Shown here in pieces: positions 710 through 43,374 of a stretch of 64,000 bases of DNA (position 1 is the first letter of the stretch; each line of letters begins with the position of its first letter). The notes beneath the pieces were generated by a model that saw only the letters and a list, made by a program, of their open reading frames with translations, ran no database searches and had not been told where the DNA came from. Source of the stretch: Eledone cirrhosa (Eukaryota); assembly GCA_964016885.1 (NCBI GenBank), contig OZ024754.1, positions 24,118,001 to 24,182,000 on the forward strand, read 5' to 3'. The position numbers and the translations under genes were made by a program.

Positions 710-768
710 ATTTTATCTGATGAGTGCGTACCAAAATTTTGGTGCCCTTGAAATATATATAATGAAAT
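710..768 (+). ncRNA. Type I hammerhead ribozyme-like motif
   Basis: attttat-CTGATGA-stem II (gtaccaaa/tttggtgc)-GAAA-tatata-TA-atgaaat. Stem I pairs and stem III is palindromic. Confidence 0.75.
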
Positions 769-1398: not shown

Positions 1399-1530
1399 GT
1401 GAGGTTTTTTTTACAAAATGAAAAATAACCGAGGTGTCCTACACGAGTGAAAGTATAAAGAAAAAGAGATGAAATCGAAAATGCAACTGGAGTCTTATTT
1501 TTTTTTTTAAATATATATATTTATTTGGTT

Positions 1531-1568
1531 CCTTTACCGGTTTCGCAGTTCTTCTGCTTTTCAAAAGG
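1531..1568 (-). ncRNA. Minimal hammerhead-like motif, U3-A8 variant (mirror copy)
   Basis: Reverse complement of 1605-1642. Confidence 0.75.
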
Positions 1569-1604
1569 TGAGTTGAGATGGAGGGTCTCCTCCATCTCAA
1601 CTCA

Positions 1605-1642
1605 CCTTTTGAAAAGCAGAAGAACTGCGAAACCGGTAAAGG
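1605..1642 (+). ncRNA. Minimal hammerhead-like motif, U3-A8 variant
   Basis: cctt-TTGAAAA-gcag aagaa ctgc-GAAA-ccgg-TA-aagg. The C3-G8 pair is replaced by U3-A8 and stem III (ccgg) is palindromic. Confidence 0.75.
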
Positions 1643-1712
1643 AACCAAATAAATATATATATTTAAAAAAAAAAATAAGACTCCAGTTGCATTTTCGATT
1701 TCATCTCTTTTT

Positions 1713-1753
<41 letters not shown>

Positions 1754-2428
1754 TAACAGATTAAAGTTTAAGCAAAGAATCGCTGCTTTCACCCTTAACG
1801 GGATCTTCTGAAACTAACAAAGTCCATCTGTAAACGCAGAACTGGATATTTCAAAAAACGTTGCAACCGGAGGAAGACAGGAAGACGATACTTTGGTTCG
1901 TGGAAACGTTCCCTGGCAAAGAACGGGAAAAAAACGAATAAGATACGTCATTAATAGGAGCGGTGAAAGACAATTACGCGCAAAGACAGAACCACGTTTA
2001 TGGTATAAAAGAGGTCGTAGACTAATGTTCACTTAGGTGGTTCATAGAGACGTTCTCTGGCAATGAACGAAAAAAAACGAAGATAATACGTCATATGTGG
2101 AGCGTGGAGAACAATAGCACGCAAAGACAAAACCACGTAAATGGTATAGCAGAAGTCGTAGACAAAAATTCTAACTTGGAGACCGAATGAATCTCCGCTA
2201 CAGAGTTAAGAACAAAGTAAATAAATACAATCCAGAAGTAATATAAATAAATAAATACATATGTTCTTTGTAGAAATATTCAGATGTTGTTTCTGCATAA
2301 TGAATATAAGTCAGTAGAGTGCACAACCGAGGGAGCCAAATAGTAATAATAATAAATTTCAAGACTAAAATCCAAAGAGGGTTCGATAAGGATAAATATA
2401 TATCAAATATATAAGAACCGTAGAGCAA

Positions 2429-4557
2429 ATGCAGAAACAACATCTGAATATTTCTACAAAGAACATACCCGTACCAAGCAGGAAAACATACATAAAACTC
2501 CTGATACAGAAAACAGACGCGTTCATTAAAAGGTTGCGTTGGCGTGCCGTTTATTTCGATAACCCGCGAAAAGCAGACAACAAACAGGATAAATTTGGAT
2601 TTAAAACCTATAATAACCCCCCGTGTAACCCAGCATTGCTACCCTTCGAAAATGATGTCTTGGAACTCATTCGGAGTATCAAATTTCGGAATAGGAGCAA
2701 TTTCTTCCAGCAAGACCTGAAGAATAGATTCGTTCTATTAAGGATTCTAATGCCGTGCACGTCCATTCCGACAAAACTGGCAACCTATATCAAGTGGAGC
2801 GCAGTACTTACCATCAACTACTACATAATGCTGTAACTAAGGATTACCGTAAAACTAATCGGTGCGTCATCAATGAAATCAACGATGCTGGGTTTAAAAT
2901 CACATCTGATCTCAACATCCTGGACCGGACCGAACCTCTGGACCCTATTTCTCCCCACTTTACCCTGAAGGATCACAAATCCAATTTTCCGAACAACCCT
3001 TCTATTCGGCTTATTAACCCTACGAAGTCAGATTTAGGTAGACTTAGTAAAACGATTCTTGATAGAATTATACCTGAAATTAGAAGTTTGGCCCCTCTTG
3101 CACTGTGGAACAATTCTTTTGCGGTGATTGATTGGTTCAACGGCATATGTAACAAGGAACATTGCCGTTTTATCCAATTCGACATCAACAATTACTACTC
3201 CTCCATCACTTTACCACTTCTCCTTAGAGCTATCAATTTCGCTAAAACACTCACAGTGGTTAAGGATTTCGAAGTTGATGTCATCCTCAATGCCCGTAAG
3301 TCGGTGATTAATTTCGACGACTCTATTTGGATTAAAAAATCCAATAGTACCCCATTCGACGTGAGCATGGGCGCCAGTGATTCTGCGGAGGTTACTGATC
3401 TTATCGGCCTTTTCCTTCTTTTCTCTATCAAGGACGAATTCCCCAACTCGGGCGGTGGTTTGTACCGTGACGATGGTCTTTTGACCATGACTAAGTGCGG
3501 ACCTCGTGCTTGCGACAGGTTCAGAAAAGAACTCACAACCTTCTTTAAAGGCTTCAACCTCTGTATACAGGTTGAGGCCAATCTCTCGGTCGTTAATTAC
3601 CTTGACGTTATCCTCAGTTTATTGAATGGGTTGTATTACCCGTATAGAAAGCCGAATGATACGCTTAATTACATAAGTAAGCATTCCAACCATCCTGCCA
3701 GCATAACCAAGAACCTGGTAAGAAACGTTTCGTTGAGGCTTTCCCGTCTTTCCACCAACGAGCGTATTTTCAACGACCATTCCACTTATTACAATGAAGC
3801 TCTTGCTCGAAGTGGATTTGTCGATAAGGTAGCATATACAGAGTACGAAAATAGACCTAGAAGAAATAGATCCCGTCGCATTTGTTGGTATAACCCACCA
3901 TATAATATGGAGGTGGCCACACCATTAGCTAAGATCTTTCTTTCCCTTATTACGAAACATTTTCCCCCTACACATAAATATAGTAAAATTTTTAATAGAA
4001 ATACTATTAAAATTTCTTACTCTACTACTCCTAACCTTGCACATAACATCACAGCTTCAAATTTAGCTAAACTACCTAGCCGTAGGAACACATGCAACCC
4101 TGTACTTAGTACTAACTGTAATTGTAGGAATCGGGTTGATTGCCCCCTATCCGGGAAATGCCTCTCTAGTAACATTGTCTACAAATGTAAGGTTGTAACA
4201 CCCACGTCCCGTAGGGCCTACATAGGGTTAACCGCCAATAGATTCAAGCAGCGTCTTTACACGCATACCCATTCTTTTCGTTACCCTCTAAGAAGGAATA
4301 TGACGTCACTTTCAGCTTATATCTGGAGTCTAAAAGACAACCACACCCAATATAAGTTACACTGGGAGATCCTAGCTAGGGCTAGATCGTATAACGGAAA
4401 TAAAAGACCATGTGACCTCTGCTCCGCTGAGGCCCTGGAAATACTCTACGCCACAGACCACATCTTAAACAAAAAATCTGAGTCAATTTCGGCTTGTAAA
4501 CATAAATTGCACAAAACTTTCCTGTATTACAGCCCCACGTTATACCCTAATGGATAG
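2429..4557 (+). pseudogene. PLE family 1 polyprotein (RT + GIY-YIG), near full length, one frameshift
   Basis: ORFs 2429-2836 and 2755-4557 join by restoring one A near 2728 that the minus copy retains. Motifs: FDINNYYSS, MGASDS, YRDD, CNCR..CPL.GKC, IVY..YIG, CDLC. Confidence 0.9.
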
Positions 4558-5487
4558 TACGATCTATACGTGGATATTTTACGTCTTGATGTGGGAGCTA
4601 AGTATATGTTTTGTTTATACCATTACTTATTTGCATAGGTAAGTATATATTACCCGTATGTTTTGTGAAGGTACGTATACCTTCTCGTACGTATATTTGA
4701 TTGTTTATGTTATGGCGTAACATTTTTTGTGTTTTTTATTCTGGTACATATGGTTTGGCTATGTGTATACGGGAGTTTTGCGTCTGTGTGAGTATGCAGG
4801 TTCGTACGTATATAGGGTGTGTGTATATGGGTACTTCATGTTTTGGTTGACTTACGTCTCCGAACATTCGTGTATTTACATGTAGGTATGTGTGTGCGCT
4901 TGTTATATACGTATTTATTTATTTATATACGTTTATATAATTATTTATTTATTTATTTGTATACACGCATATACACACACATATTTATATGTGCGTGGTT
5001 TTGTATACCTATGGTAAGTGTTTTGCGTATGCTTGTGTATGTACGTATTTTTTTGCGTGTATGTATTTATTTATTTCTATTACTTCTGTATTGTATTTAT
5101 TTACTTTGTTCTTAACTCTGTAGCGGAGATTCATTCGGTCTCCTAGTTAGAATTTTAGTCTGCGACTTCTGCTATACCATTTACGTGGTTTTGTCTTTGC
5201 GTGCTATTGCTCTCTACGCTCCACATATGACGTATTATCTTCGTTTTTTTCGTTCATTGCCAGAGAACGTCTCTATGAACCACCTAAGAGAACATTAGTC
5301 TACGACCTCTTTTATACCATAAACGTGGTTCTGTCTTTGGCGTAATTGCTTTTCACCGCTCCTATTAATGACGTATCTTATTCGTTTTTTTCCCGTTCTT
5401 TGACAGCGAACGTTTCCACGAACCAAAGTATCGTCTTCCTGTCTTCCTCCGGTTGCAACGTTTTTTGAAATATCCACTTCTGCGTTT

Positions 5488-5563
5488 ACAGATTGACTTT
5501 GTTAGTTTCAGAAGATCCCGTTAAGGGTGAAAGCAGCTATTCTTTGCTTAAACTTTAATCTGT
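5488..5563 (+). ncRNA. Variant hammerhead-like fold in PLE family 1 terminal repeat (core CAGAAGA)
   Basis: acagatt..agttt-CAGAAGA-tccc gttaa gggt-GAAA-gcag..ttgc-TT-aaact..aatctgt. Other copies at 1765-1815(-), 8800-8850(+), 16534-16584(-), 20133-20183(+). Confidence 0.6.
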
Positions 5564-6571
5564 TATTTTAATAAATATTTTCTCTACGGTTCTTATATGT
5601 TTGATATATAGTTATCCTTATCGAGCCCGGGATCTTCTGAAACTAACAAAGTCCATCTGTAAACGCAGAAGTGGATATTTCAAAAAACGTTGCAACCGGA
5701 GGAAGACAGGAAGACGATACTTTGGTTCGTGGAAACGTTGCCTGGCAAAGAACGGGAAAAAACGAATAAGATACGTCATTAATAGGAGCGGTGAAAGACA
5801 ATTACGCGCAAAGACAGAACCACGTTTATAGTATAAAAGAGGTCGTAGACTAATGTTCTCTTAGGTGGTTCATAGAGACGTTCTCTGGCAATGAACGAAA
5901 AAAACGAAGATAATACGTCATATGTGGAGCGTAGAGAACAATTGCACGCAAAGACAAAACCACGTAAATGGTATAGCAGAAGTCGTAGACTAAAATTCTA
6001 ACTAGGAGACCGAATGAATCTCCGCTTCAGAGTTAAGAATAAAGTAAATATATACAATACAGAGGTAATAGAAATTAAATAAATACATACACGCATACAA
6101 ATACGTACATACACAAGCATACGCGAAACCACTTACCATCGGTATACAAAACCACGCACATATAAATATGTGTGTGTGTGCGCGTATACAAATAAATAAA
6201 TAATTAAATAAACGTATATAAATAAATAAATACGTATATAACAAGCGCACACACATACCTACATGTAAATACACAAATGTTCGGAGACGTAAGTCAACCA
6301 AAACATGAAGTACACATATACACACACCCTACATACGTACGAACCTGCATACCCACACAGTCGCAAAACTCCCTTATACACATAACCAAACCATATGTAC
6401 CAGAATATATAAAATTATACGCCATAACATAAACAATCAAATATACGTACGAGAAAGTATACGTACCTTCACAAAACATACAGGTAATATATACTTACCT
6501 ATGCAAATAAGTAATGGTATAAACAAAACATATACCACATCAAGACGTAAAATATCCACGTATAGATCGTA

Positions 6572-8650
6572 CTATCCTTTAGGGTATAACGTGGAGCTGT
6601 AATACAGGAAAGTTTTGTGCAATTTATGTTTACAAGCCGAAATTGCCTAATATTCTTTGTTTAAGGTGTGGTCTGTGGCGTAGAGTATTTCCAGGGCCTC
6701 AGCGGCGCAGAGGTCACATGGTCTTTTATTTCCGTTATACGATCTAGCCCTAGCTAGGATCTCCCAGTGTAACTTATATTGGGTGTGGTTGTCTTTTAGA
6801 CTCCAGATATAAGCTGAAAGTGACGTCATATTCCTTCTTAGAGGGTAACGAAAAGAATGGGTAAGCATGTAAAGACGCTGCTTGAATCTATTGTTAACCC
6901 TATGTAGGCCCTACGGGACGTGGGTGTTTCAACCTTACATTTGTAGACAATGTTACTAGAGAGGCATTTCCCGGATAGGGGGCAATCAACCTGATTCCTA
7001 CAATTACAGTTAGTACTAACTACAGGGTTGCACATGTTCCTACGGCTAGGTAGTTTAGCTAAATTTGAAGCTGTGATGTTATGTGCAAGGTTAGGAGTCG
7101 AGAGTAAGAAATTTTAATAGTATTTCTATTAAAAATTTTACTATATTTATGTGTAGGGGGAAAATGCTTCGTAATAAGGGAAAGAAAGATCTTAGCTAAT
7201 GGTCTATTTTCCTAACTAATAGGTCTATTTTCGTACTCTGTATATGCTACCTTATCGACAAATCCACTCTGAGCAAGAGCTTCATTGTAATAAGTGGAAT
7301 GGTCGTTGAAAATATGCTCGTTAGTAGATAGACGGGAAAGCCTCAACGAAACGTTTCTTACCAGGTTCTTGGTTATGCTGGCAGGATGGTTGGAATGCTT
7401 ACTTATGTAATTAAGCGTATCATTCGGCTTTCTATACGGGTAATACAACTTATTCGATAAATTGAGGGTAACGTCGAGGTAATTAACGACCGAGAGATTG
7501 GCCTCAACCTGCATAGAGAGGTTGAAGCCTTTAAAGAAGGCTGTGAGTTCTTTTCTAAACCTGTCGCAAGCACGAGGTCCGCACTTAGTCATGGTCAAAA
7601 GACCATCATCACGGTACAAACCATCGCCCGCGTTGGGGAATTCGTCCTTGGTAGAGAAAAGAAGGAAAAGGCCGATAAGATTAGTAACTTCCGCAGAATC
7701 GCTGGCGCCCATACTCACGTCGAATGGGGTACTATTGGATTTTTTAATCCGAATACAGTCGTCGAAATTAATCACCGACTTACGGGCATTGAGGATGACA
7801 TCAACTTCGAAATCCTTAACCACTGTGAGTGTTTTAGCGAAATTGATAGCTCTAAGGAGAAGTGGTAAAGTGATGGAGGAGTAGTAATTGTTGATGTCGA
7901 ATTGGATAAAACGGCAATGTTCCTTGTTACATATGCCGTTGAACCAATCAATCACCGCAAAAGAATTGTTCCACAGTGCAAGAGGGGCCAAACTTCTAAT
8001 TTCAGGTATAATTCTATCAAGAATCGTTTTACTAAGTCTACCTAAATCGGACTTCGTAGGATTAATAAGCCGAATAGAGGGGTTGTTCGGAAAATTGGAT
8101 TTGTGATCCTTCAGGGTAAAGTGGGGAGAAATAGGGTCCAGAGGTTCGGTCCGGTCCAGGATGTTGAGATCAGATGTGATTTTAAACCCAGCATCGTTGA
8201 TTTCATTGACGACGCACCGATTAGTTTTACGGTAATCCTTAGTTACAGCATTATGTAGTAGTTGATGGTAAGTACTGCGCTCCACTTGATATAGGTTGCC
8301 AGTTTTGTCGGAATGGACGTGCACGGCATTAGAATCCTTAATAGAACGAATTCTATTCTTCAGGTCCTGCTGGAAGGAATTGCTCCTATTCCGAAATTTG
8401 ATACTCCGTATGAGTTCCAAGACATCATTTTCGAAGGGTAGCAATGCTGGGTTACACGGGGGGTTATTATAGGTTTTAAATCCAAATTTATCCTGTTTGT
8501 TGTCTGCTTTTCGCTCATTATCGAAATAAAAGGCACGCCAACGCAACCTTTTAATGAACGCGTCTGTTTTCTGTATCAGGAGTTTTATGTATGTTTTCCT
8601 GCTTGGTACGGGTATTTCTTTGTAGAAATATTCAGATGTTGTTTCTGCAT
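6572..8650 (-). pseudogene. PLE family 1 second copy, disrupted
   Basis: Very similar to 2429-4557. It has a 1-bp deletion near 8617, an internal deletion near 7200-7225, and further frameshifts in the endonuclease part. Confidence 0.9.
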
Positions 8651-8951
8651 GATGAATATAAGTCAATAGAGTGCTCAACTGTTCTTCCCCGTTCTTTGCC
8701 AGGGAACGTTTCAACGAACCAAAGTATCGTCTTCCTGTCTTCCTCCGGTTGCAACGTTTTTTGAAATATCCACTTCTGCGTTTACAGATTGACTTTGTTA
8801 GTTTCAGAAGATCCCGTTAAGGGTGAAAGCAGCGATTCTTTGCTTAAACTTTAATCTGTTATTTTAATAAATATTTGCTCTACGGTTCTTATATATATGA
8901 TATATATTTATCCTTATCGAGACCTCTTTGGATTTTAGTCTTCAAATTTAT

Positions 8952-13745: not shown

Positions 13746-13996
13746 TTTATGTGCATGTATGTATGTACATACATACTACTGTACGTTTGTATACATATAT
13801 GTATGTACGTATACATACTTATATTGAAGTATCAGCTGTACTAAGAGTGAGAAATGAAATTTCATTTTTTCCATTTATCATTTTCGGTACGCCCGGCCGA
13901 CTAACTCACTCGATGTGCAAATTGGGTTGCTCAGCCGTTAATATGCATACGGAAAGTATATACTTTGAAACGTTCAATCGATTGACAGGAAGGTAT

Positions 13997-14037
13997 ACGG
14001 TGCTGATGACAGCTAATAAGCTTGAAACTAGTACATC
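13997..14037 (+). ncRNA. Minimal hammerhead-like motif (family A)
   Basis: ggtg-CTGATGA-c agct aata agct t-GAAA-ctag-TA-catc. Confidence 0.8.
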
Positions 14038-14385
14038 ATTCCTTTGTCAGTGTTGAACAAAAGGGCAACGATGGTTGCCTAACACTGTACGGCTTAATTC
14101 GGGCTGTTTGTTTACAGGCATTATAATATTGTTTACAGACATTATAATAAATGTTCGGTAAACCCATACGTAAATATATATATGTGTGCATGTATGTATA
14201 TACATATACTGTACGTCTGTATACATATATGTATGTACGTATATTAATATATATAGAAAAAAACACAGTAAATTCTGCGTCTAAAATTACGAGGGTAGAT
14301 TATACCACAAATGTTTTATATATTTAAACTGAAGCATACAGTAAGATACAAGATTTCCTATACATACCGTATCAATAACGATTTC

Positions 14386-15064: not shown

Positions 15065-15109
15065 AACGATGCTGACGATAGCTAATAAGCTTGAAACTAG
15101 TACATCGTT
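15065..15109 (+). ncRNA. Minimal hammerhead-like motif (family A, copy 2)
   Basis: aacgatg-CTGACGA-t agct aata agct t-GAAA-ctag-TA-catcgtt. Stem I is 7 bp. Confidence 0.85.
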
Positions 15110-15699
15110 CCTGTGTCAGTGTTGAACAAAAAGGTGACGATGGTTGCCTGAACACTGTACGGCGTAATTCGGGCTGTTTGTTTACAAACAAACCAAGCAT
15201 TATAATAAATGTTCGGTAAACCCATACGTACATATATATATGTGTGCATGTATGTGTATATATACCTACTACTGTACGTCTGTATACATATATGTATGTA
15301 CGTATACATACATACTTACATTTAAGTACCAGCCGTACTAAGAGTGAGAAATGAAATTTCGTTTCATTCTTTTCCATTTATATATATATACATATACATA
15401 TATACATATATACATATATATATATATATACATATACATATATCCATATATACATATACATATTTACATACATATATATATCCCTTGGTCCGATTTGACG
15501 AAAGTCGATCGTTCCTAAAAAATATATCCATATATATATATACATATATTTACATATATACATTTATATACATATATATATACATATATACATTTATATA
15601 CATGTATACATTCATATACATATATACATATATACACATATATATATATACATATATACATACATATAAATATATACATACATATGTATATATACATAC

Positions 15700-15774
<75 letters not shown>

Positions 15775-15779
<5 letters not shown>

Positions 15780-16415
15780 ATACTTGGGGAGGGTCATATT
15801 TGCGTAATATTGCCAGAATTAATAACAGAACACACTCACTGTTTGGTTGGTTTTCGCTTCTCGCTGTCTTTTATTATATCTGCGATCTAACTTACTCGGT
15901 CCTCAATGTTGCCATTGACTGACCGGCGGTCAAAAATAATACAGATACAATATAGACACAAACACATATATATATATATAGTTTACATAATTTACATAAA
16001 TCTTTCGTTGCACATCTGCAACATCGTCAGTGGTGTTATATTCATTGTTCCTCCTGTTGTGTTGTATGTCTACGCCATTTTTTATTCAGTCTGTCTATAT
16101 ATTTATTTATTTATTTGCTTGTTTGTTTATCTTATTTTATTTTGTCTTCTTTGCGCATGCGTTTGCGTGTGTGTATAGTGTTATGTGTGACTAGTGTGTA
16201 TAGTGTTGTGTCTGCTGGGTGACTAGTGTGTGTTTATGTGCTTGTTGTTATTGTGCTTGTGTATGTATTTATTTATCTTATTTAATTTAATTTTATTTAC
16301 TTATTTATACTTCTCTTAGGTCAGTGTTGTTTGTTTGGGTGTTGTTGTTGTTCCACTCATTCTTTCTGTTTAGCTTTGGTAAAGCTAAACAGAAAGAATG
16401 AGTGGAACAACAACA
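15775..16415 (-). mobile_element. PLE family 2 3' fragment with terminal foldback hairpin
   Basis: Reverse complement of about 23176-23738 (ORF end, 3' UTR, pLTR with hammerhead at about 15994-16034). Hairpin 16343-16415 has 35-bp arms and loop ggt. Confidence 0.9.
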
Positions 16416-16421
16416 TATATA

Positions 16422-19400
16422 TAGTAATAATAATAAATTTGAAGACTAAAATCCAAAGAGGGCTCGATAAGGATAAATATATATAAAATATATAAGAACC
16501 GTAGAGCAAATATTTATTAAAATAACAGATTAAAGTTTAAGCAAAGAATCGCTGCTTTCACCCTTAACGGGATCTTCTGAAACTAACAAAGTCAATCTGT
16601 AAACGATCTTTCTTTCCCTTATTACGAAGCATTTTCCCCCGACACATAAATATAGTAAAATGTTTAATAGTGTAGTGACCTACATTCCGCGGGCTCACAT
16701 ACATTCTCTATGCGTGATTTGGCTCAGTTCAGCCAATCAGCGCTAGTAGAAGAGGATGTATCCCTACGCGCCCGGAGGAAGAAATTCCCCGCGAAGATTT
16801 GAAGAATCTCTCTCTTGTACCAGAAACTTCGAGCCAGCAACACGCATAATGTAACGGTGAGATATTGCACCCTAGCCTCGCCGGCTTTCCGGCGCAATGG
16901 CACATTCCCTTTTGTAACCTCTTTTTATCTGTAACTTCAACCATATAAGTTAACAAACATTGTTTGTGCTACATCAAAAATAAACATACATTTCATCTCT
17001 AATTTCTGCTGTTGAAATCATTATTATGTTACTCGTGTCTCAATAACATCTATAATCCATGCTGCTGGAATTGGCGACCTGACGAAAGGGATATTGTAAA
17101 TACTAAGATGGTAAATAGATCGAGGGACCTTCCCTCACGTCTATGTCGACAAGATAATCCAACGAGGATACTATCACTTACGACACTGGCAACTAACGAC
17201 CATCATCCTACTACACTGTTAAAGTGGCGACTATTCAACTTTCATACAGCTAAAGTGGTGACCGACGTAAGAATTTAACGCAGCCCTTCTTTTTTATTCA
17301 GTTGAACTTTTATTGCCACGTTGCCAACCTTTTTCGCAACTTGCGAAAATAAAAAATATTCCTTTTAAGATTTTTGAAAAATTAGCAGTATTTCAAAAAC
17401 TTTTCGCCACGAAGAAATTTCAAAATGGCTACCGACAGGTTCTGTCTACGATCAACAACGACAGCAGCAGCAGCGACAACATTGTTTAGCCACTGACCAA
17501 AACAGGGAATAGTGAGTGGCAGCTTCATAGCCTTACCGACGCAAACCACCACACATCGGAAATTTCAAAACGGCTTGTAACTTTACCGACGCAACCACCA
17601 TACCTTCTGTCTCGTTACCACAGGGACTCGAGAAATTGAGACAGTAGTTTTCTCACCATTATGGCGTCAGACGTGGCTGCCATGTTTGGTGACTGCTACT
17701 CTACAGAAGATTCTTTGACTTTGCTAAGGTGGCAGGACGGTAGAATGGCCACGAAAACTCACAAAAACACCATACATCTAACCCCTAACGGCATTAACAA
17801 ACTTCTTTTTCAGTTTTCAGATAGAACTAGTGTCTGTACACTGGTGATGTGTGAACTATTTGACTTTGAGAAACTGAACTTATTGAGCAATTTCTCTGCT
17901 CCCTTAGATTGACTTTGAATTATCAGTTTGTTACATTCACATATTTCTTTGTAGAATGCATTTACTTGTTTTGTGCTCTTTTGCCATTTGCTTGCTCATG
18001 GTTTTTGTTCATTCACATTCTTTGCTGTTTTACATGCCTGCATATGCACACATTTTTTTTTATCACACACCAACATGTTGTTCTTGGTATATGTTCTTCA
18101 AACGTAATATTCTGCGAGTCCCTTTCCACCTGGTTGAGGTGCTGTCACATGCTAGCAGCTCACAGAGCTTAATCCACTGGATTCAAACAGGCACCGCAAC
18201 ACGAGAATACTAATTGCAGCTGAACTCAAACAGCTTCGCATCTCGTCCATGACGGCCATCCATCTTGTTGTTTTTGCCCGACTCGCTGGGAAAGCAACAC
18301 ATTGAACTGGACTTGTCAGCATTTCGGCCACTTCTATGGATTCGCCCGAATTATGGAATTTACACTGCAACCCACCTACAGATTAAACTTGCTTTTTTTT
18401 TCTTTTCAAAGCAACCAGCCATTTTTTCCTGGCTCCCTAGCACATTCGGCAATACATCTGGGAGGCCAACATTTTCTCGCCTACCCATCATCTTCTTGCC
18501 AGCACTGCCATAATAGCTTCGTCCACAGCTACTGGTGCAGCACTTGCCATTGACATATAATGCAAGAACAGCAACTTCGCCCATGTCAGACTTTATCCGT
18601 TTTTTGTTAGACCTTTGGCGGTCACGTATAAACAACAAAACAACTGGTCATTTGACACAGCGGCTCAACACGGCCCGTAGCGCCTCATTTTTTTCCTTGC
18701 ATGCAGCCTTCTGCTCAATTATTTTGTCACTGATGTGCTCTTTCGGCATTTGTTCTTACTGATTTAATAATCTGTATCGACTACCGTCTAGAAAGGGGGT
18801 ATTGTAGTGACCTACATTCCGCGGGCTCACATACATTCTCTATGCGTGATTTGGCTCAGTTCAGCCAATCAGCGCCAGTAGAAGAGGATGTATCCCTACG
18901 CGCCCGGTGGAAGAAATTCCCCGCGAAGATTTGAAGAATCTCTCTCTTGTACCAGAAACTTCGAGCAAGCAACACGCATAATGTAACGGTGAGATATTGC
19001 ACCCTAGCCTCGCCGGCTTTCCGGCGCAATGGCACATTCCCTTTTGTAACCTCTTTTTATCTGTAACTTCAACCATATAAGTTAACAAACATTGTTTGTG
19101 CTACATCAAAAATAAACATACATTTCATCTCTAATTTCTGCCGTTGAAATCATTATTATGTTACTCGTGTCTCAATAACATCTATAATCCATGCTGCTGG
19201 AATTGGCGACCCGACGAAAGGGATATTGTAAATACTAAGATGGTAAATAGATCGAGGGACCTTCCCTCACGTCTATGTCGACAAGATAATCCAACGAGGA
19301 TACTATCACTTACGACACTGGCAACTAACGACCATCATCCTACTACACTGTTAAAGTGGCGACTTCACAACATTCATACATCCCTACTAAAATAGAAATA

Positions 19401-20194
19401 CTATTAAAATTTCTTACTCTACGACTCCTAACCTTGCACATAACATCACAGCTTCAAATTTAGCTAAACTACCTAGCCGTAGGAACACGTGCAACCCTGT
19501 AGTTAGTACTAACTGTAATTGTAGGAATCGGGTTGATTGCCCCCTATCCGGGAAATGCCTCGCTAGTAACATTGTCTACAAATGTAAGGTTGTAACACCC
19601 ACGTCCCGTAGGGCCTACATAGGGTTAACCGCCAATAGATTCAAGCAGCGTCTTTACACGCATACCCATTCTTTTCGTTACCCTCTAAGAAGGAATATGA
19701 CGTCATTTTCAGCTTATATCTGGAGTCTAAAAGACAACCACACCCAATATAAGTTACACTGGGAGATCCTAGCTAGGGCTAGATCGTATAACGGAAATAA
19801 AAGACCATGTGACCTCTGCGCCGCTGAGGCCCTGGAAATACTCTACGCCACTGACCACATATTAAACAAAAAATCTGAGGCAATTTCGGCTTGTAAACAT
19901 AAATTGCACAAAACTTTCCTGTATTACAGCCCCACGTTATACCCTAATGGATAGTACGATCTATACGTAGATATTTTACGTCTTGATGTGGGAGCTAAGT
20001 ATATGTTTTGTTTATACCATTACTTATTTGCATAGCAAACGTTTCCACGAACCAAAGTATCGTCTTCCTGTCTTCCTCCGGTTGCAACGTTTTTTGAAAT
20101 ATCCACTTCTGCGTTTACAGATTGACTTTGTTAGTTTCAGAAGATCCCGTTAAGGGTGAAAGCAGCGATTCTTTGCTTAAACTTTAATCTGTTA

Positions 20195-20200
<6 letters not shown>
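16422..20200 (+). mobile_element. PLE family 1 third copy, 5'-truncated, interrupted by an LTR element
   Basis: Inverted pLTR at 16422-16604. Body 16605-16670 and 19392-20035 matches 3933-4640, then pLTR 20036-20200 and (AT)n. Confidence 0.9.
16671..19391 (+). mobile_element. Non-autonomous LTR retroelement (TRIM/LARD-like)
   Basis: About 580-bp direct repeats starting tgtagtgacc at 16671 and 18803, with about 5 differences over the first 560 bp. PBS-like tggtgacc near 17256, PPT agaaaggggg at 18790-18799, TSD atag (or aatag). No gag/pol ORF. Confidence 0.88.
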
Positions 20201-20276
<76 letters not shown>

Positions 20277-21075
20277 TATATAGATATATATATATATATA
20301 TAGCGGCGATGAATTAGTTTTGCGAGGTTTTTTATATGAAATCGTGTGTCGAAACAAATATTGTTATACTTGGGGAGGGTCATATTTGTGTAATATTGCC
20401 AGAATTAATAACAGAACACACTCACTCTTTGGTTGGTTTTCGCTTCTCGCTGTCTTTTATATCGGTAATCTAACTTACTCGGTCCTCAATGTTGCCATTG
20501 ACTGACCGACGATCAAAAATAATACAGATACAATATAGACACAAACACATATATATAGTTTATCATAAATCTTTCGTTGCACATCTGCAACATCGTCAGT
20601 GGTGTTATATTTCCCTCCTGTTGTGTTGTATGGCGTATAACCATTGAAAGGAAGTAGGAGATCCTGTAGTTACTAGCTATATTAGCTCCGCATACGGGTC
20701 TTGTTGGTGGTCCTGTTGTCGGGTCGTCGACTGTCTTGTGGTCTTTGCGGAGCCCATACAAGGGTGGTATGCCATTGTTAGACGCCTGGAAGTTGTTGGC
20801 AGTGCGTCTGCTTGGCTTTAGGATGTCAGTCCACATCATCATGTGAGCGTTGAGGATTTTCTCTCTCCCATCGTGTGTTTGTTGTGCAATTTCGCTCGTG
20901 TTGGTGATGTGGGGTTGCATAGCCTTGATATAGTTCGGCATGCTGTCTATTGACATCCTACCAGACTTATCCGTGGGTAGACATACTACCTCACCATCCC
21001 TTGTGCGCTGCTTGAGGCTAACCAAGCCTTCTACAGGTTTCCTCCCAAGTTGTTGGGCCTCTGGTCTGCTCTGTC

Positions 21076-23250
21076 TTGGTTAGCCTCAAGCAGCGCACAA
21101 GGGATGGTGAGGTAGTGTGTCTACCCACGGATAAGTCTGGTAGGATGTCAATAGATAGTATGCCGAACTACATCGAGGCTATGCAATCCCACATCACCAA
21201 CACGAGCGAAATTGCACAACAAACACACGATGGGAGAGAAAAAATCCTCAACGCTCACATGATGATGTGGACTGACATCCTAAAGCCAAGCAGACGCACT
21301 GCCAACAACTTCCAGGCGTCTAACAATGGCATACCACCCTTGTATGGGCTCCGCAAAGACCACAAGACAGTCGACGACCCGACAACAGGACCACCAACAA
21401 GACCCGTATGCGGAGCTAATATAGCTAGCAACTACAGGATCTCCTACTTCCTTTCAATGGTTATACGCCCCATAATCAAGATGTCCCCAGATGTATGTGA
21501 CAGTACAGAGGACCTCCTCAGCAGAATCAGTGAGTGCAACAAAAACAGGAGCCTATCCAACTGCATAATAGGCAGCATGGATGTGGTGTCACTGTACCCA
21601 TCCATTAACATTGATTTTGCTGTGAAAAGATGTGTGGAGATGATCATTGAGAGTGAGGTGGAGTTCTGCGAAGTCGACACAGACGAACTGGGCCTCCTAC
21701 TTAGACTTACCTACGACACTGACTACCTAGACAGCCATGACCTTAGATGTTTCTGCCCTAGTAGACCTATAAGAGGTAGACCCCCCACCATAACCTCAAT
21801 GGCAAAAAAGACTCCCATGGGAAGGTGGATTGAGTGGACCAAAGCTATACGTACCCCCCGAAACAGTGATCAGGTAAGAAAAATGGTCGCACATGCAATA
21901 GGGGCTAGTATCAAAACTACCCTAAAGGGCCACATATTTAAGTTCAACGAGAAAATCTACACCCAAAATGAGGGAGCAGCCATCGGCGTCAGCATAGCTG
22001 GTGATGTTGCCAACCTTTTCATGGTATGGTGGGAAAGGAGACTTAAAGATCTCCTTAATGAAAGCTCCATAGACCTCATCATGTACTCTCGTTATGTAGA
22101 CGATATCAATATAGTTATAAGAACACCCCCACTAGAGAGCACTAACAAGTTTGATTTAGAACGTAGCACGATGGAAAACATCCAGCAGATAGCTAATTCC
22201 ATACACCAGAGTATAACTGTAACTATCGACTTCCCTTCCAAACACCCTAACAATAGACTACCTGTATTAGACACAGAACTTTGGATTAACACTATAGACG
22301 AGAGAGCCCAAATTCTCCACTCACACTATGCTAAACCCATGGCCTCCAAATACCTGATACTCAAAAACTTAGCAATGTCCAGTAGTGCTAAGTTTAATAT
22401 TCTGATCGCAGATTTGGTACGAGTGATGAAGAATGTGTCCCGCATGTGCGACCCAACAGAAATGGAAAGACACATCCAACACTTCATCAACCGCATGCAG
22501 TTCTCTGGCTACAACCAAAGAGACAGAGTCAGAGTATACGAAGGAGCCATGGAAAAGTATAAGACCCTCATAGAACTGGACATGAAAGGAATTTGCCCAT
22601 TATACAGGAGCAAATCATGGAATAGCTTAGATAGGGCTAGACATAAGATAGGGAAAGCCACCTCATGGTACGACAACCAGAGATACCAGAGTGTCATGTT
22701 TGTGGACGCCACCCCTGGAGGGAAATTAGCTAACCAGTGTAGAAAGGCCCTGAGAAAGGCCCACTTAAAAATAAAGGTGGTAGAAAAGCCAGGAACCACC
22801 ATAAAATCCCTGATCAGCAAAACCTACCATTTTAAGAAAACCCACTGTACCAATAGGAAATGTATCATATGTAAGGTGAACCCCCGGATAAACTGTAAAA
22901 CTAGAAACGTAGTCTATAGCATAAGATGTATAGAGGGTACTTGCAGAAACATGACAACAACATACATAGGTGAGACAGCTCGAAGCATAGGTGAAAGGAT
23001 AGACCAACACTGGGGGGAACTAAAAGGACGAAAAAACGGGTCAGTACTATACGAACATGCTAGACAACAACATGACGGTAACATAGACAACATAGAAATT
23101 AGAATAATATCTAAACATAGAAATGACCCAGCAGATAGGCAAATCAGAGAGGCCAGTGAAATAGAAATTAGAAGACCAAAGCTAAACAGAAAGAATGAAT
23201 GGAATAACAACAACACCCAAACAAACAACACTGACCTAAGAGAAGTATAA
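21076..23250 (+). CDS. PLE family 2 RT + GIY-YIG endonuclease, open frame, 5'-truncated
   Basis: 724-aa uninterrupted frame with TDKSGR, LYGLRKDHK, PTRPV, SMDVVSLYPS, GAAIG, YVDD, C..C..C linker, NVVY..YIGET..R..H. No native start codon. Confidence 0.9.
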   Translation: MVSLKQRTRDGEVVCLPTDKSGRMSIDSMPNYIEAMQSHITNTSEIAQQTHDGREKILNAHMMMWTDILKPSRRTANNFQASNNGIPPLYGLRKDHKTVDDPTTGPPTRPVCGANIASNYRISYFLSMVIRPIIKMSPDVCDSTEDLLSRISECNKNRSLSNCIIGSMDVVSLYPSINIDFAVKRCVEMIIESEVEFCEVDTDELGLLLRLTYDTDYLDSHDLRCFCPSRPIRGRPPTITSMAKKTPMGRWIEWTKAIRTPRNSDQVRKMVAHAIGASIKTTLKGHIFKFNEKIYTQNEGAAIGVSIAGDVANLFMVWWERRLKDLLNESSIDLIMYSRYVDDINIVIRTPPLESTNKFDLERSTMENIQQIANSIHQSITVTIDFPSKHPNNRLPVLDTELWINTIDERAQILHSHYAKPMASKYLILKNLAMSSSAKFNILIADLVRVMKNVSRMCDPTEMERHIQHFINRMQFSGYNQRDRVRVYEGAMEKYKTLIELDMKGICPLYRSKSWNSLDRARHKIGKATSWYDNQRYQSVMFVDATPGGKLANQCRKALRKAHLKIKVVEKPGTTIKSLISKTYHFKKTHCTNRKCIICKVNPRINCKTRNVVYSIRCIEGTCRNMTTTYIGETARSIGERIDQHWGELKGRKNGSVLYEHARQQHDGNIDNIEIRIISKHRNDPADRQIREASEIEIRRPKLNRKNEWNNNNTQTNNTDLREV

Positions 23251-23489
23251 ATAAATAAATAAAATAAGATAAATAAATAAATAAATACATACACAAGCAC
23301 AATAACAACAAGCACATAAACACACACTAGTCACCCATCACACAGCAAACATAACACTATACACACACGCAAAAGCATGCGCAAAGAAGACGAAATAAAA
23401 TAAACAAACAAGCAAATAAATAAATAAATATATAGACAGACTGAATAAAAAATGGCGTAGACATACAACACAACAGGAGGAAAATATAA

Positions 23490-23532
23490 CACCACTGATG
23501 ATGTTGCAGATGTGCAACGAAAGATTTATGAT
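23490..23532 (+). ncRNA. Minimal hammerhead-like motif in PLE family 2 pLTR
   Basis: acca-CTGATGA-t gttgca gatg tgcaac-GAAA-gatt-TA-tgat. Copies with CTGACGA at 20562-20603(-) and 15994-16034(-). Stem I is weak. Confidence 0.7.
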
Positions 23533-24105
23533 AAACTATATATATGTGTTTGTGTCTATATTGTATCTGTATTATTTTTGACCGTCGGTCAGTCAATGGC
23601 AACATTGAGGACCGAGTAAGTTAGATTACCGATATAAAAGACACAGAAGCGAGAAACGAAAACCAACCAAAGAGTGAGTGTGTTCTGTTATTAATTCTGG
23701 CAATATTACACAAATATGACCCTCCCCAAGTATAACAATATATATATATATATATATATATTGGAAAGTGTGTGAGATCCTTGGTACAGTTAGGTATATT
23801 TGAAAAAAGGAAAAGAATGACTTCACTTGTAGTAAACATTTTTTTGATTTAATGTTATATGATGATATTATATTATGAGTTGGTAGATGTAGTAAGATCT
23901 TTGATTAACTTCGGTGGGAAGAATGTTAGAGATTCCTGGTTAACTCGGGTTGGAGACCTTTCTCGCATTCGTCTGTCTGTGGCGATTGTCAAACTGAGAT
24001 CAGGTTATGTTGAAATGTGTGACTATATATAAGAGAGATTGAATGTGTCTGGGGTGTGGCATATATACATACATATATACATATATAAATATATATATAC
24101 ATACA

Positions 24106-25707: not shown

Positions 25708-27006
25708 CGAGGGGGATCAAAAAGTTCGCGGAATTTTTCAGAAAATATTCTAATTTTCAAAAAATATGATTTACCTTCAATTTATTTTTCTACATAGTTG
25801 CCATCCAGGTCAATACACTTCACAAAGCGATGATTCCAACTCCGTCAGCCGCCTCTAAAGAAAGTTGAAGGCCTTGTTTGAAGCCATGTGTTGGCAGTGT
25901 TTTTAGCACCACTAAAACGGGTTCCTTTTAGCATTTCTTTGAGTTTTGGAAAGAGGAAAAAGTCTGATGGGGCTAAATCTGGACTATAAGGCGGGTGAGG
26001 AAGCACTTCCTATCGAAATTCTCGAAGAACTTCTTTTGCAACCCGCGCAGAATGCGCTGGTGCAGTCATGTTCAAACAAGATCCCACCATGAAGTTTCCC
26101 TTTTCGTTTCTTGACTAATGCCTCTTTCAGTTTCCTTAAAACATTTGCATAGTAAGCTCCTCTCACAGTTCTTTGACCTTCAAGATAATCTATTAGTATC
26201 ACCCCATCTGAATCCCAGAAAATGGTGGCCATCACTTTTTTATCCGACTTTTGAGATTTGAACTTGATTGGCCCTGATGATCCACGTGGAAGCCACTGTT
26301 TTGACTGCTGTTTGGATTCAGGATCATACTGGTAGATCCAGGTTTCATCTCCGGTGATGATTCTGGTTAGGAAATGCTCTTCATCAACTTCAATTTTGTT
26401 TAATATCGCCAAAGACAGATCACTTCGAAGAATCAGCTGATCAGGGCGCAACGCTTTTGGGACCCATCGCACTGAAAGCTTGCTTAGTCCCAAATTATCG
26501 TGCAGAATTGAATTTGCCGAACCATATGAAATGTCTAGGGACTTAGCTAACTGATTAACTGTTATTCTTCGATCTTCTTCAATTAAAGTCTGAGCAGCCT
26601 CAACGTTTGGTCATTTTTTGATGTTCCTAGTCTTCCACTGCGATGGTTGTCTTCAAGGTCGTCTCTCCCTTGTTTGAATCGATGAATCCACTTGTAGACA
26701 GCAGTTTTCTTTGGAGCAGTAGTACCGTAAACTTTAACTAAAGCCTCCATAATCTGTGTCCCTTTCCATTTGAGTTTCACCAGAAACTTGATATTCGATC
26801 TTATCTCAAAATAACTATTTTCCATTGTTCCAAAAAGAGTTTTTTTTAAAGAGTGTCAGTACTGAACAATAGTCCACGCATGACTGATTGCAAGTAACTA
26901 ATAGCAAGGTAAACACCCAATGACAATGTTGTGACATGTTTAATATTGTTTTAACCTATTTTTTTCTTACTACGATAAAATTCGCGAACTTTTTGATCCC
27001 CCCTCG
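25708..27006 (-). mobile_element. Mariner-type DNA transposon, full length, transposase disrupted (25782-26825)
   Basis: TIR cgagggggatcaaaaagttcgcg at both ends and TA TSD. Motifs WVPKAL, ITGDETW, YSPDLAPSDFFLF occur in broken frames. Confidence 0.95.
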
Positions 27007-28441
27007 TATACTTTATCTTATTTCATTGTATTGCATTTAACCATATGTAAGCCTGTATTTTGTATATCATGCCGCATACATAACCCACACCAAAAATCAC
27101 ACTAACCATGACACACCATATTAATAACCACATATACCCCGTCTCAACATCGCCCACCTCAATGAACTTATTGTATTGTACTCCATGTAACCATTTCTAA
27201 GCCCGCATTTGTATATCATGCCGCACGCATCACCATCACCACCACCAAAATTCACATCAACATACACACCTCATCGTTGCAACATCGTATTAGATCGGTA
27301 TCCTATGATACGTTCTACCTTGCAATCCACAATGACAAGGGACCTTGTAAATACAATGTCGATCATATCACACCATCGCCACCACCACCACACCACACAT
27401 CGTCATATGCCTACCATAAACACCTACAACCTCATCCCCCCATATTCCCGCTGTCTACCCTAACCTACAACCCCACGCTAAATTCGACCTTGTAATTGTA
27501 CTGTCGCACGCACACACAACCACAGCCACCACTAGATACATCCAAATACCTCAACAATCATTATCATTAACATCATCAACACATATCACCCTCACTCCCA
27601 GATCGACTGTATTATAGACCCCCCAACCCCCGTCTGCCTTACCCTATAACACACCGTAACCTCTGATCATGTAATCATCTTGTCGAACACATCATCCCAG
27701 CACACCACCATCACCATGTCCACAACACACATCGCCGTACGTTCATAAACACCTTCTAACCGGTATTCGATCCTGTATATATATTTTTGTCCCTCACAAC
27801 TCCACCACCACCACCACCACCACAAAACACAACTCCATACTTCACCAACACCAACAACGCACCCCCACCCCACTCCCAACCAACAATAGCGTGTGTGTCG
27901 GTGTGTAAATATTCTTACACAGACGGACGTATGAGTGTGCGTGCGTGTACGCATAGTTATTGTATGTGTGTGTGTGTATGTGAGCGCAGGTGCATACATG
28001 TGTGTATGTGAGGGTACGTATCTGTATATATATATATATATATATGTGTATGTGTATGCGTATGTGTATGTGTGTGTGTCTATATGTATGTGTATGTATG
28101 TGTGTATATGTGCACGTCTACATATAGGTATATGGGTGAATCTGACTATATGTGTAGGTGAGCTCATGTGCGTGCATGTATGTGTATATGTGCGTGTATA
28201 TCTGTGTGTTGTCTGTACATGTGTGTGTGTGTATATCTATGTATATATATATACATAGAGAGAGAGAGAATTAGTACATCTACCAACATATGTGTACAGA
28301 TGTACACTCATGCTAGCAAATATATAAGTTATGTCTTAGTACCTATGTGGTTCTATGCAGGTGAATGCAGAACAATTATATGAAAGACGTAAAATAAGAA
28401 AATTTTAAAAATTAAAAATCAACTTACTTACTAAAATTTTC

Positions 28442-28527
28442 ACTCCAACTAATTAGTTTCTGTAATGGGATAAATATAGTTACATAATATATATAACTAT
28501 AGAGAATTCATTACGTCATCAGGGAGT
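28442..28527 (-). ncRNA. Hammerhead-like motif, extended stem II (mirror copy)
   Basis: Reverse complement of 28792-28877 with few differences. Confidence 0.8.
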
Positions 28528-28791
28528 CTATTCTCAGCTAAGTTCCCAGGCAATGCGCGGACACTAGGAACCCATATAAAAATAATAATTCAGTAGATGG
28601 AAAGAAGCTAGCGTGGACTAAATTCCGGAGCACTGAAAAAATTTCACGAAAGAATCAATCACGTGACACCGAGGTTAATCAGTTAGTGCTCCGGAATTTA
28701 GTCCACGCTAGCTTCTTTCCATCTACTGAATTATTATTTTTATATGAGTTCCTAGTGTCCGCGCATTGCCTGGGAACTTAGCTGAGAATAG

Positions 28792-28877
28792 ACTCCCTGA
28801 TGACGTAATGAATTTTCTATAGTTATATATATTAGGTAACTATATTTATCCCATTACAGAAACTAATTAGTTGGAGT
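28792..28877 (+). ncRNA. Hammerhead-like motif, extended stem II
   Basis: actcc-CTGATGA-c gtaatg..cattac a-GAAA-ctaattag-TT-ggagt. Confidence 0.82.
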
Positions 28878-28933
28878 GAAAATTTTAGTAAGTAAGTCAA
28901 TTTTTAATTTTTAAAATTTTCTTATTTTACGTC

Positions 28934-31458: not shown

Positions 31459-31860
31459 TGTATTTTGCAATACACTTTATGCTTAATTAAAAGCATTTTG
31501 AAGACAGTATGCTATTGTTTTAGAGTAGTGACAAATTCACTTACTTTAATCTCAACAAACAGGGGAGATAAGCCGACAAGGCCTTGTTTCGCTTTTGTTG
31601 AAGCTTATCAAGGCTAACTACTCCCTCCTGTCTACCGAGATTACTGATGTTTGATTATACAGAGCGGTTGTTGGTCAGGCAGAAATTAAAAATTAGAATT
31701 GGAGCTCTGAAATAGCAATATATAATGTATTTTGCAATACACTTTATGCTTAATTAAAAGCATTTTGAAGACCGTATGCTATTGTTTTAGAGTAGTGACA
31801 AATTCACTTACTTTAATCTCAGCAAACAGGGGAGATAAGCTGACAGGGCCTTGTTTCGCT
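31459..31860 (-). mobile_element. 1.5 tandem copies of a 267-bp ORF-less hammerhead monomer (retrozyme-like)
   Basis: The unit start tgtattttgcaatacac occurs at 31459 and 31726. A diverged partial copy lies at about 30593-30770. (AT)n flanks. Confidence 0.8.
31571..31615 (-). ncRNA. Hammerhead-like motif, U3-A8 variant
   Basis: agcc-TTGATAA-gctt caacaa aagc-GAAA-caaggccttg-TC-ggct. Stem III is a 10-nt palindrome. Confidence 0.8.
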
Positions 31861-32237: not shown

Positions 32238-33930
32238 TAAAAGATGGTTTAAAAAGTTCCATATATTTTATTATGCGCATTTCAAAAACAAATATCATCC
32301 TGGGACGATAGTCGCGTTCTCATCAGATAAAATGAGGTAACATGATATGATGCCTAAAAAAACACTTGTGAACAAGAAAGTGTCCAGTCAACATATGATA
32401 AAAATATAAAAGGAGAGAGAAGATTGGAAAAAAAGAAGGAAGAGGGAAAAGGAAAAAGAAGGAGAAGATAACGGAGGAAAAGTTTAAGAAGGAAGGAGGA
32501 AAGAGAAAGAGAAAGGAGAGAGATAGAGACTTTTAAACGGGAAACGCTGTCAAAATTGAAAAACAGCTGTGAATAACGACTGAAAAAATATATACGGCTA
32601 CGAAATAAATAAATTAATAAATTGATGAGGTTTATGATTACAGATATAGAAACTAGGTATATTATTTATTTAGGGTTTATATACTAAAAAAAATTATTAA
32701 GAGGTGTGAAAATGTATTACTAAAATAAAATAAAATAAAATAAAATAAAATAAAATTAAATGATTTATAAGCGTAGAAGACAATATAATGCCATGTGTGA
32801 AGAGATATTTATGTGAAAATATATATATATGTGTAGAAGAAAATAAATAAGAGTAGTCAAACTATGTCAAAAATTAAGTTTACTATTAAAAATTATAGGT
32901 TATATATAAAAAAAATTATAGATTATATATAAAAGAAATTATATATGTGGGAAAACTATTTAAATATTTAAATATTAATTTAATCCACAAGTAAATAGAA
33001 GAAAATGTTATAATTATTTAAACGTAGAAAAAGCGAAGAAAAAAACGAAGAAGACATATGACGTCATAATTTGTTTACAAAATCTACGAAGGTTTAAATT
33101 GAAAAAATAGGATGTGATAAAGGAGGAAAAGTGAGCGGCTTAAAAATAGTGAGAAGAAAGAAAATAAAGAAACATTAAATATGATCTATTTAAATAATAT
33201 TTTGTATCACCAAGTAGATAAAGGAACTTGCTAGAGTGATTTAAAGCGTAGAAGAACATATAACTTCATAGTATGTTTAAAACTTTGTAGAGTGTTATGC
33301 GAGAAAAAGTGTAAAAAGATATTTGTGTAAAAGAAATATATATATATGTAAATAATGTTTAACCTTTATTCGTGGAATAAGATATAGGGTATTAGCTGTA
33401 TACTTTGTGAAATGACCTAAGAGATTTATGGATGCAGAGAACAAATAAATCGGTGAGTCTATTTATTATAGAGTTGAAATTCGAGATAATGGTACATTTT
33501 TCAGCTAGACATAAATTACAAGCCCTAGATATAGAAGCATTAGAATATGGAGAAGCATTGCATATTTTACGCCAAGAAATTTTGTAATTAATGTTTTTGT
33601 CTCTTAAGGACCAGATGAGTTCTGAGAGTGCAGTGTTTGTTCTTTTAAGTTGATATTTAAATAAGGAATAATGGTTATATAGTATTGCCTTAAAGGAAGT
33701 AGAAGTAGAGCCAATGTAGGTATAAGAATTGGTACTAGTTAGCACCTTATATTCGTATACTAGATTTTTATCGAGACAGAAATTAAGAGGACATTTAGTT
33801 CTATTAGGGCAGTTGCATTTACGATTAATGTTATTAACAGAGTTATTTGCAAGTGGCCCAGGATTAATTATAATAGGAATTGTAGTGGTGGAATTAGTTA
33901 AAGGAGGTGCTAATGTTTCAAATAGTAATT
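32238..33930 (-). mobile_element. PLE family 3, 5'-truncated (GIY-YIG remnant about 33392-33830 plus about 1.1-kb 3' region)
   Basis: CNCPNRTKCPL, NLVY..YIGST, ALSELIWSL, CNLCLAEK resemble the family 1 endonuclease. It ends at a hammerhead and (AT)n. Confidence 0.85.
32265..32333 (-). ncRNA. Hammerhead-like motif at the 3' end of PLE family 3
   Basis: attttat-CTGATGA-stem II (tatcgtc/gatgata)-GAAA-tgcgca-TA-ataaaat. Confidence 0.82.
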
Positions 33931-42803: not shown

Positions 42804-43150
42804 TCTTGAGGTTAAATAATGACAACAGCAACGACATGTATGTACAGCACAAGATTAAGAAAAGACAAAATACTATAAAGAAAAATGAGAAACACAATAT
42901 TGGATAAGGACATTAGAAATTTATTACAAGGTTAAGTAGACAGATCAATGTGATTGTAGGGTACAGATCTAGACAGATCAATGTGATTATAGGGTATAGA
43001 TCTTATAGGGTATAGATCTCGACAGATCAATGTGACTGCAGGGTATAGATCTCACTCAGTGCTGCAGATGTTAATACAATGATCTGAAGAGTGAGAGAAT
43101 TAAATACAGGAGTGGGGTGAGTGTGTGAGGGGAACACTGCAGAGGAAAGC

Positions 43151-43374
43151 CTCATTTAAGTTCAGCAAGAACGCCAGCTTCACTCAAGTTCAGCAAGAAA
43201 GTCAGCCTCATTCGAGTTTAGCAAAGGTGTTGGCCTCACTCGAGTTCAGCAAAGGCGTTGGCCTCACTCGAGTTCAGCAAAGGCGTTGGCCTCACTCGAG
43301 TTCAGCAAAGGCGTCGGCCTCACTCGAGTTCAGCAAGGGCGTCGGACTCACTGGAGCTCTACAAGAATGTCAGC
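43151..43374 (-). repeat. 28-bp minisatellite overlapping the PCCA stop codon
   Basis: Eight units with period 28 (43151, 43179, 43207, 43235, 43263, 43291, 43319, 43347). Confidence 0.9.

Follow-up and report, generated by a model that had tools for sequence, protein, structure and literature searches.

A type I hammerhead motif with A4 in a Hydra-clade Penelope-like element

We analyzed a 64-kb stretch (here, the window) of the 3.0-Gb genome of Eledone cirrhosa. It contains a Penelope-like element (PLE) with a frame for a reverse transcriptase (RT) and a C-terminal endonuclease and, about 950 nt downstream of that frame, a predicted hammerhead motif in which the U at position 4 (U4) is replaced by A (A4) (Table 1). 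We refer to the element's family as the A4 family. Where copies of the element stand in tandem, the motif precedes the start codon, and the tail that follows it (L039 and L048) leads to the start codon about 150 nt past the predicted scissile bond; the tandem unit measures about 3.26 kb (L061). An intact copy (L065) encodes 709 amino acids, with RLRWR at residue 35, DKT at 115, CxCX5C at 564, YIG at 598, CxxC at 662, and CxH at 690. The A4 family also shows insertion into (TA)n as well as terminal and inverted repeats. A Pfam search gave no RT or GIY-YIG domain match in the element's protein. With an RWK-type motif, DKT, a CxCX5C linker, and, at the C terminus, an endonuclease flanked by CxxC and CxH, the element belongs to the Hydra clade of PLEs; the marks of this clade, including the protein motifs and the (TA)n insertion, are those given in section 11 of Craig et al. 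2021 (PMC8557442). A reading made earlier from the sequence alone (the sequence-only reading) had proposed a PLE terminal-repeat hammerhead, which proved right. It had also called the family recently mobile, and indeed many genomic copies carry 713-codon frames that are still open, which indicates a young family. Corals were the source of the named members in the protein clusters of the element's relatives, and no relatives were found in viral contigs. Hydra PLE sequences also occurred inside bacterial assemblies from animal-associated samples (L169 to L182), where they are probably host contamination.

Table 1. Features of the A4-family element and copies of its hammerhead motif in the window
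Feature	Position	Strand	Remark
RT and C-terminal endonuclease frame, Hydra-clade	2429..4557	+	split over two frames near 2730-2840
3' UTR upstream of hammerhead	4558..5487	+	internal repeats of ~137 bp near 5149-5425
Type I hammerhead motif with A4 (copy 1)	5488..5563	+	predicted; A4 = 5510
Copy 1, outer stem I	5488-5494/5557-5563	+	7 bp
Copy 1, inner stem I	5504-5508/5550-5554	+	5 bp
Copy 1, core CAGAAGA	5509-5515	+	C3 = 5509
Copy 1, U10.1 and U11.1	5516; 5528	+	unpaired
Copy 1, stem II	5517-5519/5525-5527	+	3 bp
Copy 1, G12-A14	5529-5531	+	
Copy 1, stem III	5532-5535/5545-5548	+	4 bp, 9-nt loop
Copy 1, U17	5549	+	predicted scissile bond 5549/5550
Optional tail/5' UTR start	5564..5628	+	
Inverted second unit, A4-family element	5628..8650	-	ORF start to hammerhead
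5'-truncated endonuclease-end fragment, A4 family	19391..20035	+	upstream of third copy
Full copy 2	8784..8859	+	C3 8805; then long tail, (TA)n
Full copy 3	20117..20192	+	C3 20138; then short end, (TA)n
Full copy 4	16525..16600	-	C3 16579
Full copy 5	1756..1831	-	C3 1810; inside inverted upstream repeat
Copy 6, truncated	5623..5660	-	C3 5639; stops in loop II, inversion junction

With a descriptor search we recovered the core CAGAAGA in five full copies, three on the plus strand and two on the minus strand, as the sequence-only reading had it. In all five, unpaired U10.1 and U11.1 flank a 3-bp stem II; the inner stem I has 5 bp, stem III has 4 bp and a loop of 9 nt, and both G12-A13-A14 and C16.2-U16.1-U17 are present. 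The A in place of U4, the U-U closing stem II, the CUU site, and the bulged stem I named in that reading thus recur in every full copy. Its copy positions hold for core identity, but 1765 and 16534 are the low ends of minus-strand copies with C3 at 1810 and 16579. Beyond the core, the five copies vary slightly, by one base in loop III (5538) and, in the copy at 1810, by one change in outer stem I.

The hammerhead positions kept are C3, G5, A6, G8, A9, G12, A13, A14, A15.1-U16.1, and H17 (here, U17). Those absent are U4 of the CUGA turn, with A instead, and the G10.1-C11.1 pair, with U-U instead. Because U4 of the CUGA turn is missing, we regard the motif as a variant or derivative and not as a canonical type I member. 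In the predicted fold, three helices surround a junction that is open at stem I; this pairing is possible and conserved and is not the minimum-energy fold. We built a covariance model on 37 U4 hammerheads from relatives, leaving out the A4 family itself; with it, the five copies scored 16.4 bits (joint 7th of 30 window matches; rough E value, 0.067) and a natural U4 copy of the A4 family (L056) scored 23.4 bits. The rows of this model were chosen by our own descriptor, so that their 99% pairing is partly by construction. Rfam gave no hammerhead match at the A4 site and none for the natural U4 copy either.

A4 is fixed in the family and its older subfamilies

Five copies in one window are insufficient to define a family trait, so we relied on genome-wide counts and on older subfamilies. 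Among 21,233 copies with exact flanks, position 4 was A in 21,005 and another base in 228 (about 99% A); in the first 100 rows, the non-A bases were C, G, and T in nearly equal numbers, as expected of decay. A pattern enriched for older subfamilies had A4 in 71 of 76 matches, with variation at position 7 (A, U, or G) and in the sequence and length of loop II. Flanks and frame fragments at the older-subfamily loci were mostly 74 to 89% identical to the young family, decay included. When 30 endonuclease-anchored loci were chosen regardless of the core, all 14 in which the motif was found had A4, and in rows anchored on the tail whose 5' flank was intact, position 4 was mostly A. A4 is fixed across the A4 family and its older subfamilies, and the counts uphold the earlier claim that it is a trait of the family and not the decay of one copy.

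Raw DNA reads from one run, compared at 80% likeness, showed at least 19 variant places in the 150 nt upstream of the motif and, among the best 40 of 186 rows, none from inner stem I through the 3' side of stem I; with four DNA runs, too, no variant was seen in the motif among those rows. Contig starts at the scissile bond in two DNA runs were discounted, as they fit assembly-graph breaks.

Several candidate families were rejected. Matches that suggested a U4 subfamily of the A4 family proved, on inspection (L193 to L196 and L199 to L201), to be fold-back junctions read on the opposite strand. A seemingly large second A4 family, which predominated among the first 100 of 9,585 rows, was set aside on one locus, L191, where it is the antisense flank of a canonical hammerhead, with no stem I, and where the covariance model gives it no score. 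Other A4 matches (220, against 40 in the control) were largely rare mutants of family B, a U4 family, and A4 combined with G10.1-C11.1 showed no excess over the control (804 versus 922). Among the latter matches, an A4-reading hairpin motif with a 6-bp stem II recurred (e.g., G000:C1:53491511), which may be either another small A4 family or infrequent mutants of a U4 family; L050 holds a U4 copy of a similar motif. Within the A4 family, about 16 of the first 100 5'-end rows shared a 2-nt deletion at the border of stem III and loop III (e.g., G000:C1:30491253), possibly a propagated sublineage.

A4 is derived from U4

We surveyed 92 loci of relatives with a descriptor that left position 4 free. 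It found 70 motifs in 57 loci and none in the other 35; position 4 was U in 68 motifs and C in one, and the remaining one was a low-scoring A-containing match. Three reversed or shuffled controls gave 1 match. U4 was likewise present in 26 of 26 Hydra rows in File S2 of Craig et al. 2021. The same pattern held inside the host genome: family B had U4 in 99 of the first 100 of 5,448 matches, and family D, which carries the CUU site, U-U, U17, and G15.2-C16.2, combined them with U4 in 99 of the first 100 of 6,211 matches. The sister Hydra family F (L339 and L347), at about 44% to the A4 family at the amino acid level, also has U4. Families F and B are the nearest relatives compared at the DNA level, and P0001 is the closest protein, with P0012 also among the closer relatives. 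In a FastTree phylogeny of 66 proteins, which left out 33 rows without a detected motif, segments of <250 amino acids, and the named Hydra reference families, the A4 family nested among U4 elements. Because U4 occupies 68 of the 70 motifs of relatives and is present in two sister families in the same genome, we conclude from these comparisons that A4 is derived and arose on the branch of the A4 family.

The sequence-only reading had proposed aligning related families at the core; among the relatives surveyed here, U4 is near-universal. The list of atypical features in that reading stands for A4 but not for the U-U mismatch or the CUU site with its U17: U-U at 10.1/11.1 occurs in 14 and U17 in 9 of the 26 published Hydra rows, and the CUU site occurs in family D. 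The oddity of the motif is therefore a single base. Covariation of A4 with G15.2-C16.2 was ruled out, since family D has the same pair with U4. As a separate observation, family F comprises 657 candidates whose copies are 96 to 98% identical, with a canonical hammerhead that has a long stem II (L339:235-294).

Stems and core remain constrained

For a test of constraint, we used the flanks of 149 copies to sort them into three classes, namely, 96 young, 42 middle, and 11 old copies; the old class was picked in part by a pattern that fixes the core and stem II. The majority base differed among classes in 0 of 51 paired or core columns compared with 13 of 47 loop or flank columns (P = 3e-5 [by Fisher's test]), which argues that the fold is still constrained. 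For the 10 core columns alone, zero change is weakly significant (about 0.04 at the loop rate, by our estimate), and the non-A counts at 5510 in the column table are inflated, as L031 to L060 were selected as non-A. These 149 copies revealed no compensatory changes in base pairs within the lineage; support for the fold therefore comes from conservation and from homology within the clade.

The thermodynamic fold of the motif was no better than that of shuffled sequences (z = -0.63). In the 76-nt window copies, the full three-way junction was predicted to lie 3.4 to 4.0 kcal/mol above the ensemble; the same measure gave 5.0 to 6.6 for the canonical families B and D as monomers. Folding predictions point to two traps. 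One is that A14 may pair with U17. The other, pairing of the core with G12-A14, had a predicted probability of 0.13 to 0.40 in the 76-nt A4 copies versus 0.02 in the natural U4 copy, a gap that vanishes with longer flanks, so that A4 favors this trap in short constructs only.

Fold-back junctions mark the 5' edge of the core

Genome-wide, we counted 669 perfect fold-back junctions centered on position 4, in the odd palindrome TTC-A-GAA (e.g., L193, L194, and L199). Control palindromes 5 nt away and 50 nt upstream had 22 and 4 junctions, respectively, although these controls are even palindromes and not fully matched. Since the junctions concentrate there, reverse transcription appears to stop frequently at the core's 5' edge. 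Family B, which is canonical, has 46 fold-back junctions at the 5' edge of its own core, against 5,448 matches, so that folding back at this place needs no loss of catalysis. The junctions read as a U4 core on the opposite strand and can mislead motif searches. Inversion of the TTC-A-GAA palindrome would turn U4 into A4 and is a possible origin of A4.

No sharp peak of 5' ends was found at the predicted scissile bond in the first 100 rows, nor was there one in family B. By hand tally of the first 100 rows in each family, about 26 of 68 true junctions in the A4 family and about 22 of 100 junctions in family B lay within 2 nt of the bond. We attribute the A4-family ends near the bond to A/T microhomology.

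Comparison with known hammerheads

The closest published motifs are the Hydra PLE hammerheads of Craig et al. 2021 (PMC8557442; including Hydra-1_oBim), which are also of type I, lie near the 3' end of a C-terminal-endonuclease PLE in (TA)n, and have A7 in some rows. They differ in that all 26 rows combine U4 with C15.2, whereas in the A4 family A4 goes with G15.2-C16.2 and stem-loop III is longer. The length given for Hydra PLEs, "generally <3 kb," is also below that of the A4-family tandem unit. The minimal PLE hammerheads of Cervera and De la Peña 2014 (PMC4209133) share the terminal-repeat location and a core variant fixed in a family, but their U3-A8 is a compensated pair, while A4 is without a known partner. 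Moreover, as described there, those motifs have no stable stem III and work in dimeric form, whereas the A4 motif can form a monomeric stem III. Natural core variants compiled by Perreault et al. 2011 (PMC3088659) include U4C, A6C, U15.1-A16.1, and U10.1-U11.1. They offer a precedent for a position 4 change with reduced activity and for a U-U closing mismatch, but the change in the text of that paper is viroid U4C, a pyrimidine, and not U4A. The Anolis Poseidon hammerhead (Frangieh et al. 2024, PMC11167929) is likewise in a PLE terminal repeat and comes with a model of protein assistance. It belongs to another PLE clade, and it overlaps the start codon, unlike the A4 motif; no position 4 change is described in the portions of that paper compared here.

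No hammerhead with U4A fixed turned up in the literature searched, of which several sources were covered in part, or in File S2 of Craig et al. 2021. U4A was also not found in 12 of the 56 alignment rows and a term search of the supplement of Cervera and De la Peña 2014, and the string "U4A" is absent from the text of PMC11014351 and PMC4176186. This search excludes Figures 5, S6, and S7 of Perreault et al. 2011, Lunse 2017, and Nelson and Uhlenbeck 2008, which may bear on the matter.

Function of the A4 motif

Homology to hammerheads, the fixation of A4, its derived state, and the constraint on stems and core are the firm part of our account. Position 4 is part of the CUGA turn. According to Perreault et al. 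2011 (PMC3088659), U4 is contacted by the A6-N7 phosphate. Roberts 2023 (PMC9901934) assayed all pairwise mutants of one type III hammerhead, in which single and double changes in the CUGA turn left little activity, with the exception of the C-G swap. In vitro, the U4C viroid variant reacts far more slowly, but in vivo it suffices (PMC3088659). PLE hammerheads in general are weak in vitro (Cervera and De la Peña 2014, PMC4209133), and the Poseidon hammerhead of Frangieh et al. 2024 (PMC11167929) cleaved only with its protein; insertion in vitro did not depend on cleavage.

The explanation we favor, to which we give slightly less than an even chance, is a weakened ribozyme that would cleave after U17 slowly or only when the RT-endonuclease of the element folds the motif. 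Position 4 became A on the branch of the A4 family and was then fixed while the fold was retained. Published mutagenesis of other hammerheads suggests that A4 lowers catalysis, and the case of one Poseidon element suggests that the element's own protein may assist folding. Residual cleavage would then trim tandem or read-through transcripts; if it was not limiting for insertion, amplification to >21,000 copies would have been possible. A related claim is that the purine-4 hammerhead still self-cleaves because the retroelement protein or a new tertiary contact rebuilds the U-turn. We consider this less likely than not; if true, a core mutation would have been rescued by its host element and amplified >21,000 times.

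The main competitor is a catalytically dead motif kept as a structural signal, either a binding site of the RT-endonuclease or a boundary for reverse transcription, and we rate its chances at roughly a third. Position 4 is otherwise near-invariant, and the low activity of CUGA-turn mutants fits a dead core, as does Poseidon insertion in vitro without cleavage. Naiads, moreover, lack canonical hammerheads and have spread nonetheless (Craig et al. 2021, PMC8557442), and the pile-up of fold-back junctions at the 5' edge of the core would fit a boundary, but canonical family B folds back at that edge too. We nevertheless favor the weakened, protein-assisted ribozyme, because the remaining catalytic bases do not change between subfamilies even as N7 and the loops drift, as expected if the chemistry still matters. 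If, conversely, the motif were a natural variant with full activity, A4 would have to be offset by the bulged stem I and by a stem III that is longer and monomeric. Its 4-bp stem III with 9-nt loop and conserved 7-bp outer stem I do set it apart from most relatives, in which stem III is short and often palindromic, and tertiary contacts can offset core variants (Perreault et al. 2011). We hold this to be improbable, as G15.2-C16.2 is not tied to A4 (family D pairs it with U4) and no second mutation rescued CUGA-turn mutants in the type III hammerhead scanned (PMC9901934). Slightly less probable still is that the motif is a neutral relic or that A4 is kept for another reason, such as a splice acceptor in the core. 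A4 does create CAG after a U-rich tract, and an intron of Drosophila Penelope extends to the 5' side of helix I (Cervera and De la Peña 2014). Changes avoid the stems and core, however, unlike under drift alone, and no recurring spliced junction appeared in the first 100 of 1,717 copies starting near A6, a null result weakened by the fact that PLEs usually keep introns.

The function of PLE hammerheads has been called unclear (Craig et al. 2021, PMC8557442). In the A4 family, which is large and young, a putatively crippling core change has persisted over several waves of subfamilies, in a genome that also contains canonical U4 families and natural U4 copies of the A4 family itself. The family is thus a natural test of whether PLEs require self-cleavage. 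If the A4 motif is active, the hammerhead consensus extends to a purine at position 4; if it is inactive, the fold has a noncatalytic role. The standard hammerhead descriptor fixes CUGA, so families of the A4 type would be missed and scored as lacking a hammerhead.

Other repeats in the window

Several hammerhead-bearing repeat families are present in the 64-kb window. Canonical minimal hammerheads of another repeat family, with U4 and a palindromic stem III, lie at 13996-14040 and 15065-15109 (both +). An inverted hammerhead pair at 1528-1571 (-) and 1602-1645 (+) has the U3-A8 core variant known from Cervera and De la Peña 2014. The custom covariance model pointed to further hammerhead-like motifs at 710-768 (+), 32265-32333 (-), 31568-31618 (-), 28440-28529 (-), 28790-28879 (+), and 61077-61166 (+). 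A second, distant PLE-like RT frame of 742 amino acids occupies 21022-23250 (+), with inverted or terminal repeats of its element at 15638-16380, 20200-20632, and 23175-23761; neither descriptor nor model gave a convincing hammerhead for this element (best score, 10.4 bits). Tandem arrays, an RT frame, and a transposase fragment make up the features at 50784-51253, 43149-43400, 61595-63853 (-), and 25984-26610 (-), among them 47-bp and 28-bp tandem arrays, a LINE-like RT and PHD-finger frame, and a mariner-type transposase fragment.
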